Of a DNA stretch of 48,338 nucleotides, positions 41,632 to 46,572 are shown one piece after another. The notes under the pieces are model-generated. The model was not told the origin of the DNA. It saw only the letters and a list, made by a program, of their open reading frames with translations, and made no database searches. Location: the NCBI GenBank assembly GCA_047639395.1, contig JBLINR010000001.1:1-48338 (forward strand), given 5' to 3'. The number at the start of each line of letters is the position of its first letter. Position 1 is the stretch's first letter. Source of the stretch: Candidatus Woesearchaeota archaeon. GTDB taxonomy: Archaea; Nanobdellota; Nanobdellia; Woesearchaeales; DATGWN01. The position numbers and the translations under genes were made by a program.

Positions 41632-42627
41632 TTACAATGCTTTCTTAAAATCTTCAATAACTTGCACAGGTGTTGGATCAATACCTGCTGCTAATGCACA
41701 ATAATAAGATACCCAATCTGCGAGATAACTTGCTGAGAATAACTCACACAGTGTTTCTTCACCACGTATTGTCATTTCAAGACATTGATTTCCGCTTTTT
41801 TTGATTGCAATTTTAAGTGCGTCCATTCTTTGTTTGATTTGCGGATGGTCATTTGCACTTTTGAGGATGATTGTGTAGTAGTGGTTATTTGCCGTCTGAT
41901 ATGCTGCTAACTCATTATGTGCAACTTCAGGAACAACATTACAAAATGCCATTCTCTTTGCATTTTCATTAAAACTGATTTTCCATTTGTAACCAACAAA
42001 GCTATATTTAGGAGATGTATAGATAATTGGTGTCTTGTTTCCAATCTTTTCAGCGAGTTGTTTTGCTAAATCATCGTATGTATCTTTGTTTAGTACACTT
42101 TTAACTTGCTCAATTGCTTTGTCTTGCTTTTGGATGATTCCCGTATTTTGTAATACACCAATCATTGCAAAGAACATATGAGTTAACGCCATTCGAGGTT
42201 GTTCCCCTGTTGGGATTTTGATATAAGGACTTTTATACATAGGAGCAAGTATTTCTAATTTTCCACCGCTACTGATAACAATAGTTTGGATTCCTGTCCG
42301 TCCGATTTTTCTATAGATATCAACAGTTTCTGCTGTATTTCCACTATAACTAATTATGAACACAAGTGATTCTTTAGTAATGAACTCTTGCATTGCAAAT
42401 TCTTGTACCACATAGACTGGGATGTTTTTGATATAATTCTGTAATAATCGTCCAGGTAAGCCGCTGCCACCCATTCCTACTATTACGATGTTTTTGAACT
42501 CGCCATGACCTTTCTTTTCAAATGAAAGTTCAATTCCTTCTTCAACTTGTTCGTGAACTGATCTGAGAATTTCTTTGAAGTTACTTTTGTCCATAGTAGT
42601 GTCAAATTCCATGTTTTTAAGAAACAA
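41632..42627 (-). CDS. Bifunctional phosphoglucose/phosphomannose isomerase (SIS domain)
   Basis: VIVGMGGSGLPGRLL, SYSGNTAET. The 331-aa length is typical of archaeal PGI/PMI. Confidence 0.8.
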   Translation of the reverse strand: MFLKNMEFDTTMDKSNFKEILRSVHEQVEEGIELSFEKKGHGEFKNIVIVGMGGSGLPGRLLQNYIKNIPVYVVQEFAMQEFITKESLVFIISYSGNTAETVDIYRKIGRTGIQTIVISSGGKLEILAPMYKSPYIKIPTGEQPRMALTHMFFAMIGVLQNTGIIQKQDKAIEQVKSVLNKDTYDDLAKQLAEKIGNKTPIIYTSPKYSFVGYKWKISFNENAKRMAFCNVVPEVAHNELAAYQTANNHYYTIILKSANDHPQIKQRMDALKIAIKKSGNQCLEMTIRGEETLCELFSASYLADWVSYYCALAAGIDPTPVQVIEDFKKAL

Positions 42628-42656
42628 GTTCTTGTTTAAAAACCTATTGTGTTAGG

Positions 42657-42664
42657 TTTAAAAG
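42657..42664 (+). promoter_or_regulatory. TATA element (TAGGTTTAAAAG) of 42688 gene
   Basis: Ends 24 nt upstream of ATG 42688. Nearly identical to the element at 43467. Confidence 0.5.
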
Positions 42665-42687
42665 CAACTGCGATTTCCCTTTTAGAT

Positions 42688-43446
42688 ATGAAAATAGTTC
42701 CTTATGCACGTCCTATGAAACGAGCCACTGTGAGTTACAGTGGTAGACTACTTCCTTTCAAAATTCGAGAAGATAAACTATTACGTGCATATGAGCTTGG
42801 AAATTATGCGATTCCTTCATCTGCCGCATGCATTCTTCTTCATCGATTAATAGATCGCGTTGACACTTCTAATATACCTGGAGAAAACAGAATAGTGATA
42901 GGGAATGGAAGTGAACAGTCCGCTGTAGACGCGATAGCTAAGTCATTAGAAGCAACTCCTGTATACTCAACTGTAGATGGCGGAGTAAGTGATCCTGAAG
43001 TTTTACTGAATGCGAGATTTACGTTTGTGTTTTCTTTATTCGGGACATCTGTTGTTAATTTTGGAAAAGATCCTCAGAAAAAGTTAGGTCAAGAGTTAGC
43101 ATTATATAATTTTGAAGATCCTGTTGATACAAGGTCAAACACCTTTCAATATGCAGTTAGAGTTGGGATAAAAGAAACACTTTCTCATATTACTGGATAC
43201 AATTCTGTTTTAGAGTGGGAAGTCGATCAACTGAGAACACATCCTGCGCATATCATCACACAAATTGAAAGTCCTATAGTAGCAAATATTTTTTGTAATA
43301 GATATAGTTCGTTGATTAATGACTTAGGTATGTCTGACTTGTATAGTAGGGCATTTTTAGATAGGAACTGTACTGAAAATGATATTGCTTCTTTACTTAA
43401 AAAAGAACCGCCTGAAGAACCAATTGAATGGTCTTTCCCGGCATAA
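42688..43446 (+). CDS. Hypothetical protein, paralog 1 of a tandem pair
   Basis: 252 aa from ATG 42688. The N-terminal SGRLLPFKIREDKLL aligns with NGELFPICIDDKYLL of the next gene. No known motif, no TM. Confidence 0.45.
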   Translation: MKIVPYARPMKRATVSYSGRLLPFKIREDKLLRAYELGNYAIPSSAACILLHRLIDRVDTSNIPGENRIVIGNGSEQSAVDAIAKSLEATPVYSTVDGGVSDPEVLLNARFTFVFSLFGTSVVNFGKDPQKKLGQELALYNFEDPVDTRSNTFQYAVRVGIKETLSHITGYNSVLEWEVDQLRTHPAHIITQIESPIVANIFCNRYSSLINDLGMSDLYSRAFLDRNCTENDIASLLKKEPPEEPIEWSFPA

Positions 43447-43466
43447 TTACGATCTGTTATGATAGG

Positions 43467-43474
43467 TTTAAATA
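43467..43474 (+). promoter_or_regulatory. TATA element (TAGGTTTAAATA) of 43499 gene
   Basis: Ends 25 nt upstream of the TTG start at 43499. Confidence 0.5.
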
Positions 43475-43498
43475 CATTGTATCATTCCCTCTAATAAA

Positions 43499-44308
43499 TT
43501 GGACATTACTGACGTATTAAGAAAATCATTACTTGTAACTACTGCTCCTGGAGTTCGCCCTAATGGTGAACTATTTCCTATTTGTATTGATGATAAGTAT
43601 TTACTTGGCGATTCTTTATCTGCTGAAGAAACAAAAGCCATAGAGGAACCAGACTTTTTGGATGTATTAGTAAAAAATGAAAGATATCACGCTATTCAAT
43701 TGGAACTCATTAGAGCAGCTGAAAATTTTCCAACTGAGTCTTCTTTTTTTGTTGATGAGGATAATTTACTTTTTGGACTTTTATTACATGCTCATTTTAA
43801 TAGACCATTACAAATAGGATATGATGATTGTTTCAAGACATATAATCCTTCCAATCATCCAACAACATCTCAGTCACCTGTCATAGGAGTACAAATATTC
43901 CAAGATGAACAACAGCCATTAGTACAAGGGCTGTACCACGATGCTGATGCTAAGATTGAATTAGCGGGAAGGATATCTTTATTTTCAGCAGAAGATTTAT
44001 CTGAGAAAAGAGCTTCAGCATTTCCTATTACAAACGATCTTGTTACACAACTTGTTCGAGAACAACATGGTATGACTCTCTCACAATACCGAAAAATGAT
44101 TTTTAAAAGGTTCGCACCATCATTTACACGAAAGTCTTTATCTAGATGTAAAAAAAGTGAAGCTAATAACTTTCTAGAACGATATGAATCAGAAATCCGT
44201 GCTGCAAAAGCAGGAGAAACAATTGTAAGCCGTCTCAGAACAACTGGACATGAATCATATAATTTTGCACGATCATTATTACTAGAATCTCGTTCTTTTG
44301 GTGCATAA
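43499..44308 (+). CDS. Hypothetical protein, paralog 2 of a tandem pair (TTG start)
   Basis: 269-aa ORF. The only start codon at promoter-compatible distance is TTG 43499. No known motif. Confidence 0.45.
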   Translation: MDITDVLRKSLLVTTAPGVRPNGELFPICIDDKYLLGDSLSAEETKAIEEPDFLDVLVKNERYHAIQLELIRAAENFPTESSFFVDEDNLLFGLLLHAHFNRPLQIGYDDCFKTYNPSNHPTTSQSPVIGVQIFQDEQQPLVQGLYHDADAKIELAGRISLFSAEDLSEKRASAFPITNDLVTQLVREQHGMTLSQYRKMIFKRFAPSFTRKSLSRCKKSEANNFLERYESEIRAAKAGETIVSRLRTTGHESYNFARSLLLESRSFGA

Positions 44309-44312
44309 GCTT

Positions 44313-45098
44313 CTAGAAGTCAGTAAGTGATACTTGTCTAACTTGTTTTGGCATAACATTCCATTCTGGACAAAGTGACTTATACGAACACCAGTTACAT
44401 AATTGAGTTTTAGTAGAAGGATAATGCGTGGTATCTTCAATTGTTGCAATAATACGAACAGTGTCGTCTTCAAGTGTAGTAAGCTCATCATCACTTCGAG
44501 TTGAAACCATTTGTGTATTGTGCGCTAAAAAATCCCAAACCAGTTTCACATCAGTACATTCAGGGTATCGTTTCTTGACCCAAATTGAATACAAAGCTAA
44601 CTGTCGATCTTTATCAACTTCATCTTGTGTTTTGAGTGCATTATTTGTTTTATAATCACACACATAATATGTTGTGTCTTTCTTTGCAAGTTTGTCAATA
44701 CGCACATAATATTTATTTCCGTCTTTTAATTCAAGTCGATCGTTTGTTTCTAATCCTAAGATTTCAAGCTGATCAAATGGATGATAAGATTCATAGTATT
44801 GTGTGAGGAATAGTCTGCCTTTGATTACGTATTCTTCTTTTGTGCCTCTATTAATAACGATGTCATCAGTCCACTGCTTCCATAAGAACACATATTTTTC
44901 AATTAAAGCTTCTTTTGTTGGGATACCTATATGAGCAATCTGTTCAAAAAGCCAGTGTAATGCCTGGTGCACAATATCACCTAAGAATAGTTCAACTGTA
45001 GAAGGAAGATCAACGCGAATTCTATCAACGTATTGAAATTTGTATTTGAGTTTACATTGTTTGAATGTTTCAATTCTTGAATGTGAATAAACTGCCAT
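44313..45098 (-). CDS. Cas4-like PD-(D/E)XK nuclease with a four-Cys cluster (stand-alone)
   Basis: N-terminal FKQCKLKY Cys, VCDYKT (D-x-K), RQLALY (QxxxY), C-terminal CNWCSYKSLC (CxxCx5C). Confidence 0.75.
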   Translation of the reverse strand: MAVYSHSRIETFKQCKLKYKFQYVDRIRVDLPSTVELFLGDIVHQALHWLFEQIAHIGIPTKEALIEKYVFLWKQWTDDIVINRGTKEEYVIKGRLFLTQYYESYHPFDQLEILGLETNDRLELKDGNKYYVRIDKLAKKDTTYYVCDYKTNNALKTQDEVDKDRQLALYSIWVKKRYPECTDVKLVWDFLAHNTQMVSTRSDDELTTLEDDTVRIIATIEDTTHYPSTKTQLCNWCSYKSLCPEWNVMPKQVRQVSLTDF

Positions 45099-45129: not shown

Positions 45130-46572
45130 TTACTTTTTATCGTAATTTTTTAAACAATTTTTAACTTGATTTACTTCTAGGAAGTTTGTTGATCCTGATT
45201 CGTGTTCTGGAGTTCGTCCAAGAATAACAACAGTATCATCTAATTCTAGTTTTTTATCATCAACAAGTGCTTGTAGACTTTTACAGACAAGTTCTTCGAC
45301 ATGTTTGACTTCTTCAATCATAGATGCTCGAACATTGTACGCTAGTCCTAATTCTCGCATAACTCCTGAGTCTGTACATTGCGCATAGATTGGTATCTTT
45401 GGTCGAAATGTTCCTAACATTCTTGCAGTAATACCTGTTACAGATGGAACAATAATTGCTTTTGCTCCTAATTCTTGAGATGCTGAAATAGCTGCTTTAA
45501 CTAATACTCCTCGTGAATCACTTGCTTTAGTTTCCATTGCGTGATATTTAAATTCAGGTTTCTTTTCTTCGATTGTTTGTGCAATTGAAGCCATTGTTGC
45601 AACAGATTCTTCTGGGAAGTCTCCGCTTGCAGTTTCTCCTGATAACATCAGACACCCAGTACCATCAAGTACTGCATTTGCCACATCACTTACTTCCGCT
45701 CGTGTTGGCCGAGGGTTGTTACACATACTTTCAAGCATTTGTGTTGCTGTGATAACCATTTTATTCTTTCGAATACACTTTTTGATCATCATTTTTTGAA
45801 TAGTAGGAACTTCAGCTGCCGGTATTTCAACACCTAAGTCACCACGTGCAATCATAACTCCGTCACAATGTTCAAGAATTTCATCTAGATTATCAACACC
45901 CATTTGACTTTCAATTTTTGAGATTAATTTAATAGGGCTTTTATGTTCATCTAGAATTTTTTGAATTTGTTGTAGATCACTTGCATGTTGAACAAATGAA
46001 TGTGCAATAAAGTCGATTTTCTCATCAATTGCAAGTTTAATGAATTCTTTATCTTTTTCTGTAAGAACAATTAAGTTTAAGTCAACATTTGGAATGTTTA
46101 CACTTTTTTTGTTTTTGATTGTTCCTTCATTATCAACAACTGCAATTAATGAGTCTTCTGTAATTTTTTTAACAGTAAATTGAATATATCCGTCATCTAC
46201 AAGAATATTTGCTCCAACTGGAACTTCTTTTGCAATATTTGGGAAATTCACATAGATTGTTTTTTCATCACTTGTTACGTTTGTATCGTCTGTTCCTTTA
46301 AATGCAACTTCTGCACCTGTCGGATAAGTAACTTCTTTTTCATATCCAAGTGTTCGTACTTCTGGACCTTTTGTGTCCATAAGAATTGGAATTTTATCAC
46401 TAACCGCTCTTGTATTTTGAACAACTTTCAAAATACCTTCGCGGTCTTGGTGTGCAGTGTTCATTCGAACACAATCTAGGCCATTATCGTATAATTTTTG
46501 TAAAAATTCCTTGCTACACCGTCTATCTGAAATGGTTGCAACAATTTTAGTTCGTTTATCTCTTAAGTTCAT
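45130..46572 (-). CDS. pyk: Pyruvate kinase
   Basis: TKIVATISDRR, MDTKGPEVRT, MIARGDLGVEIP, ATQMLESM. Confidence 0.9.
   Translation of the reverse strand: MNLRDKRTKIVATISDRRCSKEFLQKLYDNGLDCVRMNTAHQDREGILKVVQNTRAVSDKIPILMDTKGPEVRTLGYEKEVTYPTGAEVAFKGTDDTNVTSDEKTIYVNFPNIAKEVPVGANILVDDGYIQFTVKKITEDSLIAVVDNEGTIKNKKSVNIPNVDLNLIVLTEKDKEFIKLAIDEKIDFIAHSFVQHASDLQQIQKILDEHKSPIKLISKIESQMGVDNLDEILEHCDGVMIARGDLGVEIPAAEVPTIQKMMIKKCIRKNKMVITATQMLESMCNNPRPTRAEVSDVANAVLDGTGCLMLSGETASGDFPEESVATMASIAQTIEEKKPEFKYHAMETKASDSRGVLVKAAISASQELGAKAIIVPSVTGITARMLGTFRPKIPIYAQCTDSGVMRELGLAYNVRASMIEEVKHVEELVCKSLQALVDDKKLELDDTVVILGRTPEHESGSTNFLEVNQVKNCLKNYDKK

Follow-up and report, generated by a model that had tools for sequence, protein, structure and literature searches.

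Genes A, B and C, which lie between pgi and pyk in a Candidatus Woesearchaeota genome, are likely to be three independent transcription units rather than a functional module. Gene C codes for an ordinary solo Cas4-like Fe-S nuclease of the PF12705 type, of a kind already described in DPANN archaea, while A and B, genuine genes whose codon usage matches that of the host, appear, in the sampled data, as strict, species-specific orphans. The analysis covered a stretch of 48,338 nt from contig JBLINR010000001.1 (hereafter, the window), for which an earlier sequence-only reading had proposed that A and B are tandem paralogs forming, together with the nuclease, an uncharacterised nucleic-acid-targeting or defence module. 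The features of the region are listed below with their coordinates in the window and strand.

41632–42627 (−), pgi, bifunctional PGI/PMI-type SIS protein (PF10432, 4.4e-45)
42644–42662 (+), promoter of A, repeat copy 1, CTATTGTGTTAGGTTTAAA, with TATA box TTTAAA at 42657–42662
42688–43446 (+), gene A, orphan of 252 aa counted from the ATG, family not assignable
43454–43472 (+), promoter of B, repeat copy 2, CTGTTATGATAGGTTTAAA, with TATA box TTTAAA at 43467–43472
43499–44308 (+), gene B, orphan of 269 aa counted from a putative TTG start on a leaderless mRNA
43502–43538 (+), strain-level SNP cluster in codons 2–14 of B, with 7 differences in 37 bp
44313–45098 (−), gene C, 261 aa, stand-alone PF12705-type Cas4-like (RecB-family) PD-(D/E)XK nuclease with a 4Fe-4S Cys cluster
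45130–46572 (−), pyk, pyruvate kinase (PF00224, 4e-112)

The profile matches of the two flanking genes bear out their earlier identification as PGI/PMI and pyruvate kinase, and the stop codons of the convergent genes B and C are indeed separated by only 4 nt. Because A and B converge on C, they are not co-transcribed with it; pyk is located directly upstream of C, in the same direction and after a gap of 31 nt. The start of pgi is probably the ATG at 42612, rather than the TTG at 42627, because a TTTAAA at 42635–42640 is situated 28 nt upstream of the former, which is the genome-wide spacing for leaderless genes. The impression that the block differs in composition from its neighbours did not survive measurement: the GC content of A-B-C (0.32–0.38) is within the range of the flanks (0.30–0.39), codon scores are within that of the genome, and the change in AT skew across the region reflects only the switch of strand. 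Searches for insertion signatures at the locus (flanking direct or inverted repeats, tRNA, integrase) found none, and there were no matches to Rfam families within 41.5–46.7 kb.

Both A and B have positive codon scores in their own frame (+0.19 and +0.31, respectively), with the other five frames at or below approximately zero (best 0.004, the rest negative). These scores place A, B and C in the 7th, 42nd and 36th percentiles of the genome, and the GC3 values of A (0.22) and B (0.16) compare with a genome value of 0.22 ± 0.03. Public gene callers start A at the GTG at 42649; this codon is an unlikely start since it lies upstream of the TATA box of the gene, and A most likely starts at the ATG at 42688. 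The first in-frame ATG of B does not appear before codon 192, and B probably starts at the TTG at 43499 on a leaderless mRNA, although a TTG with a properly spaced TATA box is found in only four candidates genome-wide, versus 211 for ATG.

Each gene has its own promoter, as the sequence-only reading had stated, and both transcripts would be leaderless. A survey of 707 long ORFs in the genome situated the start of the TTTAWA motif at −31 to −28 from the ATG, and the normal leaderless layout of this genome has its TATA box some 30 nt ahead of the start codon; the TTTAAA preceding A starts at −31, the genome-wide mode, and that of B at −32. The near identity of the two promoters stood up, with an exact TAGGTTTAAA in both (42653–42662 and 43463–43472), although the distances to the start codons are 25 nt for A and 26 nt for B instead of the 24–25 nt given originally. 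The window has no further exact copy, and the 1.01-Mb genome has six in all, these two included. The twin promoter is mostly the standard TATA box of the genome at its usual position, but there is some likeness beyond it. A TTCCCT is found 13 nt 3′ of the TATA box in both promoters, and a repeat search recovered the pair as a 19-nt direct repeat with 84% identity. After alignment on the TATA box, 25 of 46 positions outside of TTTAAA are identical (background, 14.2 ± 3.4), a value reached by 0.3% of 4656 promoter pairs in a test that was run once the similarity had already been noticed. This likeness hints at common ancestry or co-regulation and is not explained by the independence of the units.

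The alternative that fares best is a tandem duplication of gene and promoter, after which A and B diverged past recognition at the protein level; this is a claim on origin that is compatible with three independent units, and we regard it as possible but rather unlikely. Its support comes from the promoters (the 19-nt repeat including the exact 10-mer, and the 25/46 identity with equally spaced TTCCCT, p ~0.003), from the similar length and pI of the two proteins, and from collinear blocks. The peptides on which paralogy had been proposed are present, SGRLLPFKIREDKLL as residues 18–32 of A and NGELFPICIDDKYLL as residues 22–36 of B, and there is a further collinear block, ANIFCNRYSSLI in A and ANNFLERYESEI in B. 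In a post-hoc test restricted to the collinear N-termini (A 15–32, B 19–36) the similarity reached p ~0.014. Against this, none of the unbiased comparisons of the two proteins was significant: blastp gave E = 12 in an alignment that does not contain the N-terminal block, the full Smith-Waterman score was 35 versus 32.5 ± 4.9 in shuffled sequences (p = 0.26), the best ungapped 18-mer had p = 0.21, global alignment did not exceed z = 1, hhalign returned a probability of 0.3%, and phmmer --max with A did not recover B even at E ≤ 20. Additionally, the order of secondary structure elements differs in low-confidence predictions, and the promoter test shares its post-hoc character with the restricted N-terminal test. 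The claim of paralogy had been made dependent on a statistical alignment of the N-terminal block, and no such alignment backs it.

As first described, A and B code for two unassignable proteins, and these are expected to be soluble and cytoplasmic. Protein A (pI 5.5) is basic in its N-terminal 60 aa, and protein B is acidic along its first 200 aa and very basic (pI 10.4) in the last 70 aa; from these basic ends one could guess at binding to nucleic acid or protein. We found no matches for A in Pfam, NCBIfam, PHROGs or PADLOC, and no family match for B. Among 5.8 billion proteins A matched only itself or a near-identical strain, and an exhaustive phmmer search with B of 1.84 billion representative proteins retrieved only itself. 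Homologs of A were likewise absent from 40 relatives, 400 genomes of the phylum, genome contigs, viral contigs, phages and plasmids; for both genes, scans of metagenome, genome and viral contigs and tblastn against phages and plasmids were empty, there was no homolog in billions of proteins or in 440 related genomes, and no paralog was found in their own genome. Part of this orphan status may reflect sparse sampling or undetected fast-evolving homologs, because the nearest sampled genomes are only ~50% identical even in PGI, PK and C. AlphaFold2 single-sequence models had mean pLDDT values of 36.2 (A) and 36.6 (B), which are too low for fold comparison, and the lack of homologs leaves no alignment to build on; either protein may thus have a known fold. 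In their host-like codons, lineage-variable slot and want of detectable homologs, A and B resemble the taxonomically restricted genes of DPANN archaea; unlike these, they fit no described orphan family and define none.

The ORFs of both genes are intact in three other assemblies. The cluster of seven SNPs at the start of B comprises four synonymous and three non-synonymous changes; the alternative haplotype is identical in three independent assemblies (L003, L004, and L005), and L003 shows just two SNPs over the remaining 7.4 kb. Gene conversion was rejected as the origin of this cluster, since neither haplotype has a second copy in the genome.

A possible relationship of B with family-4 uracil-DNA glycosylases (UDG; PF03167), as a degenerate member, was also discarded. 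Residues 61–131 of B matched the UDG that adjoins pyk in G003 with 7.4–8.3 bits in phmmer, and this UDG, searched back against the genome of the window, found B alone (E = 0.59). A profile of 13 DPANN UDG4 sequences gave B no score, and placed A at −0.9 bits with other ORFs ranking above it; a search of the genome with PF03167 yielded no matches. By eye, B also bears a likeness to these enzymes in APG, G.LFP and NHP; the motifs expected of the family include GEAPG and HPA.

That an integrated virus or another DPANN mobile element left A and B behind as remnants is quite improbable. Both are orphans missing from the pyk-pgi interval of the relative G004, and DPANN viruses are poorly sampled, so that absent database matches weigh little against this origin. 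Nevertheless, the locus lacks an integrase, tRNA or flanking repeats, IMG/VR and the phage and plasmid collections contain no match to either gene, their GC content and codon usage are those of the host, and they run up to the promoter of pgi at one end and to the stop of C at the other, without any spare DNA.

Gene C is the sole PF12705 gene in the genome and its product matches this profile with 86 bits (4.9e-24; cut-off 22) along positions 3–247 of 247, whereas it only marginally exceeds the cut-off of PF01930 (23.3 bits versus 22.7) and, at 34.6 bits, remains below that of TIGR00372 (65); its best score is with PF12705 and not with models of bona fide Cas4. It carries the RecB-type motifs (D, (D/E)xK and QxxxY) and a 1+3 Cys cluster (C15 plus CxxCx5C), and residues C15, C234, C237, C243, E117, D135, D148, K150, Q166, and Y170 are invariant in an alignment of 11 orthologs, in agreement with its initial description as a PD-(D/E)XK nuclease with a Cas4-type Cys4 cluster. 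Within PADLOC, only the generic Cas4 and DruK nuclease models were matched. A profile of C orthologs retrieved, among solved structures, just the nuclease domains of the helicase-nuclease entries 6ppu and 7sjr, with the segment containing DxK, QxxxY and CxxCx5C (profile positions 135–248; E 0.0025 to 0.0046). Entry 6ppu is mycobacterial AdnAB, which makes both of the AddB/AdnAB type; in contrast to them, C is not fused to a helicase, nor does its gene neighbourhood conserve one.

The product of C belongs to a short-form minority: approximately 60 of 72 complete orthologs (among 80 loci) have a C-terminal domain of ~140 aa that is missing from it, and it ends instead in the PIP-box-like peptide QVSLTDF. 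All seven complete short-form proteins with tails (C and six orthologs) end in Q/E-x-x-L-x(1,2)-[FWY] (QVSLTDF, QSVLGDF, QESLFRY, RTLDEWI, QTTLQF, QKLNFF, and QTKLNF), although the second aromatic residue of the reference PIP box, Qxx[LIM]xx[FYW][FYW], is often missing from them. The candidate explanation that A or B is the detached C-terminal domain of the long-form orthologs was rejected, as a profile of this domain had no matches in the genome.

We identified at least 521 C-related loci in genome contigs, almost all of them labelled as MAGs of DPANN archaea; in a set of 41 genomes, made up of G000 and 40 relatives, C occurs in 21, with strong orthologs in at least 14 of the relatives. The earlier remark that the window contains no CRISPR array or other cas gene can be extended, since neither an array (crude scan) nor Cas1 was found in the whole assembly (genome 88.5% complete), nor were other cas genes among the ORFs of 39.5–48.3 kb. 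Therefore, although its motifs and Cys cluster match those of CRISPR-associated Cas4, C lacks the neighbourhood of cas1/cas2 or an array. Solo-cas4 and pfam12705 Cas4-like genes, for which uncharacterised roles in defence or repair have been suggested, have been described as common and vertically inherited in small-genome archaea free of CRISPR-Cas (Hudaiberdiev et al., 2017; PMC5704561), and the same pattern is documented for DPANN, as in Nanobdellota YN1 (PMC11420986). Gene C resembles these solo Cas4-like nucleases (PMC5704561) in its RecB motifs and 1+3 Cys Fe-S cluster, in standing alone in a genome without Cas1 or a CRISPR array, and in its wide, apparently vertical distribution in DPANN with a non-conserved context; it differs in being a short form, with the PIP-box-like peptide in place of the C-terminal domain.

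Synteny in relatives separates C from its neighbours. In G003 and G008, which belong to the same family, pyk is followed by C with conserved order and orientation, and C accompanies pyk and not A or B. The sequence-only reading had suggested looking for relatives in which pgi and pyk are adjacent without the insert, and this arrangement occurs in G004, also from the same family, where pyk-pgi-nrdA are contiguous without A, B or C; orthologs of pgi with 47–50% identity occur in all three genomes. As far as the adjacency can be judged from a single lineage, A and B are an addition specific to this lineage and probably not partners of C. In G003, an unassignable 243-aa ORF is situated downstream of the C ortholog.

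It is thus very doubtful that A, B and C constitute an uncharacterised nucleic-acid-targeting or defence module, a proposal that draws on the tight packing of the three genes, with convergent stops 4 nt apart, and on the roles suggested for solo Cas4-like nucleases (PMC5704561). The co-occurrence that had been put forward as its test was absent, which largely refutes it: the ±4 kb around the C orthologs of 80 loci contain no ORF resembling A or B, and the commonest neighbour family appears in only six of these loci, so that C has no conserved neighbour. Furthermore, C is paired with pyk in relatives lacking A and B, convergent orientation rules out an operon, A and B have no match in PADLOC, and neither the composition nor the codon usage of A-B-C is island-like. 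We give equally little credence to A and B being young, fast-diverging tandem-duplicated orphans that act as accessory factors of C (e.g., specificity or inhibitor subunits), and it is just as hard to credit the corresponding picture of a retained promoter and short N-terminal block with strain-level diversification at the start region of B (7 SNPs in 37 bp). Least probable of all is that A and/or B are spurious ORFs without a protein product, since, in spite of the lack of homologs, the very low AlphaFold2 confidence and the TTG start of B, nearly unique on a leaderless mRNA in this genome, their frames stay open for 252 and 269 codons in 35%-GC DNA, unbroken in three other assemblies, with codon scores positive only in frame, correctly spaced TATA boxes and, for B, four synonymous changes among seven strain SNPs.

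With the region read as three independent units, C would be inherited with the chromosome, sitting in this family just downstream of pyk, and would most likely act as a DNA-end-processing or repair nuclease, possibly held on PCNA by its C-terminal QxxLxxF peptide. Genes A and B would be species-restricted orphans lodged between C and pgi, each with a standard archaeal TATA promoter of its own that yields a leaderless mRNA, and their placement beside C would be positional and not functional. The outcome is a clean negative for the idea that an orphan pair plus a solo Cas4 make a module. As unassignable orphans lacking a signal of co-occurrence, A and B offer no handle on the function of solo Cas4, and little is gained from C itself, since the solo Cas4-like gene of DPANN archaea has been described before. 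Two start sites were corrected by the analysis: A most likely starts at the ATG at 42688, and pgi at the ATG at 42612. As a side lead, the PIP-box-like tails of the short-form solo Cas4-like nucleases are a candidate link to PCNA, and hence to replication or repair.

The open reading frames that the sequence-only reading had placed between pgi and pyk were borne out by the ORF calls, and the locus is organized as follows.

Gene layout between pgi and pyk
41632..42627, minus strand: pgi, flanking the A-B-C block
42688..43446, plus strand: gene A, ORF
43499..44308, plus strand: gene B, ORF, putative TTG start
44313..45098, minus strand: gene C, ORF for a 261-aa Cas4-like nuclease
44313-44345, within C: PIP-box-like C-terminus, with orthologs in short-form loci L028, L029, L045, L050, L053 and L055
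45130..46572, minus strand: pyk, flanking the A-B-C block

Only 4 nt separate the stop codon of B from that of C, and since A and B run convergently toward C, a transcript shared with it is impossible.

The product of C matched PF12705 from end to end (86 bits), was marginal against PF01930 and fell below the cut-off of TIGR00372. Across 11 orthologs there is no variation in any RecB-family catalytic residue or in the four cysteines and, among solved structures, a profile of C orthologs matched only the nuclease domains of helicase-nucleases 6ppu (mycobacterial AdnAB) and 7sjr. C is the sole PF12705 gene in its genome, where neither Cas1 nor a CRISPR-like array was found. Relatives of C are encoded at no fewer than 521 loci of the GTDB species set; the 80 loci kept for analysis are almost all labeled as Woese-, Pace-, Nano-, Aenigm- or Iainarchaeota or as unclassified archaeon MAGs, the few under other labels being probably misassigned. 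Solo-Cas4 and pfam12705 Cas4-like genes are over-represented in small-genome archaea without CRISPR-Cas; they are mainly inherited vertically, with a putative function in repair or defence (PMC5704561; PMC11420986). C matches this published situation (PMC5704561; PMC11420986), and its predicted product is an ordinary solo Cas4-like nuclease.

Approximately 60 of the 72 complete orthologs from the 80 loci measure 370–406 aa and carry an additional C-terminal domain of ~140 aa. The complete short forms with tails (n = 7, including C itself) all terminate in a PIP-box-like peptide (QVSLTDF, QSVLGDF, QESLFRY, RTLDEWI, QTTLQF, QKLNFF, and QTKLNF), which suggests that short-form solo Cas4-like nucleases may be tethered to PCNA. 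The idea that A or B might be the detached domain of the long form was rejected, since a profile of that domain matched nothing in the genome.

The proposal that A, B, and C form a functional module found no support in the neighborhoods of C orthologs. Using phmmer (--max), we found no A- or B-like ORF within ±4 kb of C orthologs at the 80 loci (best E-values 0.19–0.31), and the commonest neighbor family of C occurs at only 6 of them. In two relatives from the same family, G003 and G008, pyk is immediately followed by the C ortholog (52–54% identity), with both gene order and orientation matching this locus; unrelated genes come next, and pgi is on a separate contig. A third relative, G004 (100% complete), carries pyk-pgi-nrdA on one strand, with ~290 bp from pyk to pgi; A, B, and C are absent from this interval, as anticipated for an insert, and there is no match to C anywhere in that genome. 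From these arrangements, C belongs with pyk, and the interval between C and pgi has gained A and B as a lineage-specific addition. Neither repeats nor a tRNA or integrase that would mark an insertion were found at the locus, and there were no Rfam matches in the region. In G003, the C ortholog is followed by a 243-aa ORF without a Pfam family (L027:5589-6317), so unassignable genes occupy the slot after C in a second genus of the family as well.

The neighborhood of pyk also bears on uracil-DNA glycosylase (PF03167), present in 9/9 same-family relatives, adjoining pyk in G003 and G008 and at ~3.6 kb from it in G004, and not detected in the 88.5%-complete genome studied here. Because the contig, all of which is covered by the window, ends (48338) 1.8 kb beyond pyk, the gene may sit in an assembly gap, or may be truly lost. 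B was rejected as a candidate: its single-sequence similarity to the G003 enzyme encoded beside pyk was lost with a 13-sequence UDG4 profile.

A compositional deviation of the A-B-C block was not confirmed. GC content stays level throughout the region, GC and GC3 of A and B are ordinary for the genome, and the change in AT skew follows from the strand switch alone. Codon log-odds were positive in the annotated frame only, with scores of +0.19 for A (7th percentile among ORFs ≥ 200 aa) and +0.31 for B (42nd percentile). Both resemble resident coding genes rather than recent imports. Their products had no match in Pfam, NCBIfam, PHROGs, PADLOC, or PDB sequences, and a 5.8-billion-protein index yielded nothing beyond the same protein as encoded on this contig and on near-identical strain contigs. 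An exhaustive phmmer search of B against 1.84 billion cluster representatives retrieved only itself, and nothing credible appeared for A or B in 40 relatives or for A in 400 genomes of the phylum. No match emerged from JGI metagenome contigs, GTDB genome contigs, or IMG/VR, nor from phages and plasmids by tblastn. Since PGI, PK, and C are only about 50% identical to the nearest sampled genomes, homologs of A and B could escape detection if fast-evolving. AlphaFold2 without an alignment gave a pLDDT of 36 for each. With GRAVY values of −0.17 (A) and −0.35 (B) and no long hydrophobic stretches seen by eye, both proteins appear to be soluble; the first 60 aa of A are basic, and B (pI 10.4) combines an acidic body with a very basic C-terminal 70 aa.

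A and B had been read as paralogs with twin promoters. Their duplication is possible, in that the promoters are similar and the proteins share two short collinear blocks (p ~ 0.014 in a post hoc test limited to the collinear N-termini), but every unbiased protein test failed to support it: blastp (E = 12) left the N-terminal block unaligned, the Smith-Waterman score was 35 vs. 32.5 ± 4.9 for shuffles (p = 0.26), the best ungapped 18-mer had p = 0.21, global alignment gave z ≤ 1, hhalign a probability of 0.3%, and phmmer (--max) with A against all ORFs from its genome did not match B even at E ≤ 20. As for the promoters, the window contains only two exact copies of the 10-mer TAGGTTTAAA (42653-42662 and 43463-43472), 25 nt (A) and 26 nt (B) upstream of the start codons; the 1.01-Mb assembly has 6 copies vs. 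~8 expected from a rough composition-based estimate. Among 707 long ATG-initiated ORFs, TTTAWA hexamers concentrate at −31 to −28 relative to ATG, with an A-rich stretch at −35 to −33, pointing to predicted leaderless transcription from a TATA box ~30 nt upstream as the rule for most genes in this organism; weak AGG/GGT enrichment at −12 to −10 indicates Shine-Dalgarno-like leaders in a minority of genes. TTTAAA starts at −31 from ATG 42688 in A and at −32 from TTG 43499 in B, so the twin promoters largely reflect generic genome architecture. Still, their similarity is above chance: aligned on the TATA box, 25/46 positions outside the hexamer are identical (background 14.2 ± 3.4 over 4656 pairs; 25 reached by 0.3% of pairs), TTCCCT lies 13 nt after the box in both, and a repeat search picked up the two regions as a 19-nt direct repeat with 84% identity.

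This layout also bears on start sites. Public gene calls extend A to GTG 42649, upstream of its TATA box; from the position of its TTTAAA, ATG 42688 is most likely the start. Likewise, the most likely start of pgi, which has its own TATA box at 42635-42640 (−28), is ATG 42612 rather than TTG 42627. The divergent pgi/A spacer (75 bp; 42612-42688) contains two TATA boxes 22 bp apart. A predicted leaderless TTG start is nearly unique in this genome, with only 4 TTG candidates having a well-placed TATA box vs. 211 for ATG, and the other three show by eye an ATG in or beside the start region of the printed sequence context. The putative TTG 43499 is still plausible, because no codon of B ahead of codon 192 is an ATG.

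At strain level, codons 2–14 of B (43502-43538) differ at 7 positions within 37 bp, of which 4 are synonymous and 3 non-synonymous. The variant haplotype, with TTG at codon 11, is identical in three other assemblies, and no donor copy was found in the genome. Outside this cluster, strain contig L003 shows 2 SNPs in 7.4 kb, and strain contig L005 has a second cluster, of 9 SNPs, in C (44877-44927), exactly at the end of the L003 contig.

The sequence-only reading was therefore correct as a description and unsupported as an interpretation: the locus is an ordinary solo Cas4-like nuclease beside an unassignable, unrelated orphan pair, in a slot that is variable.
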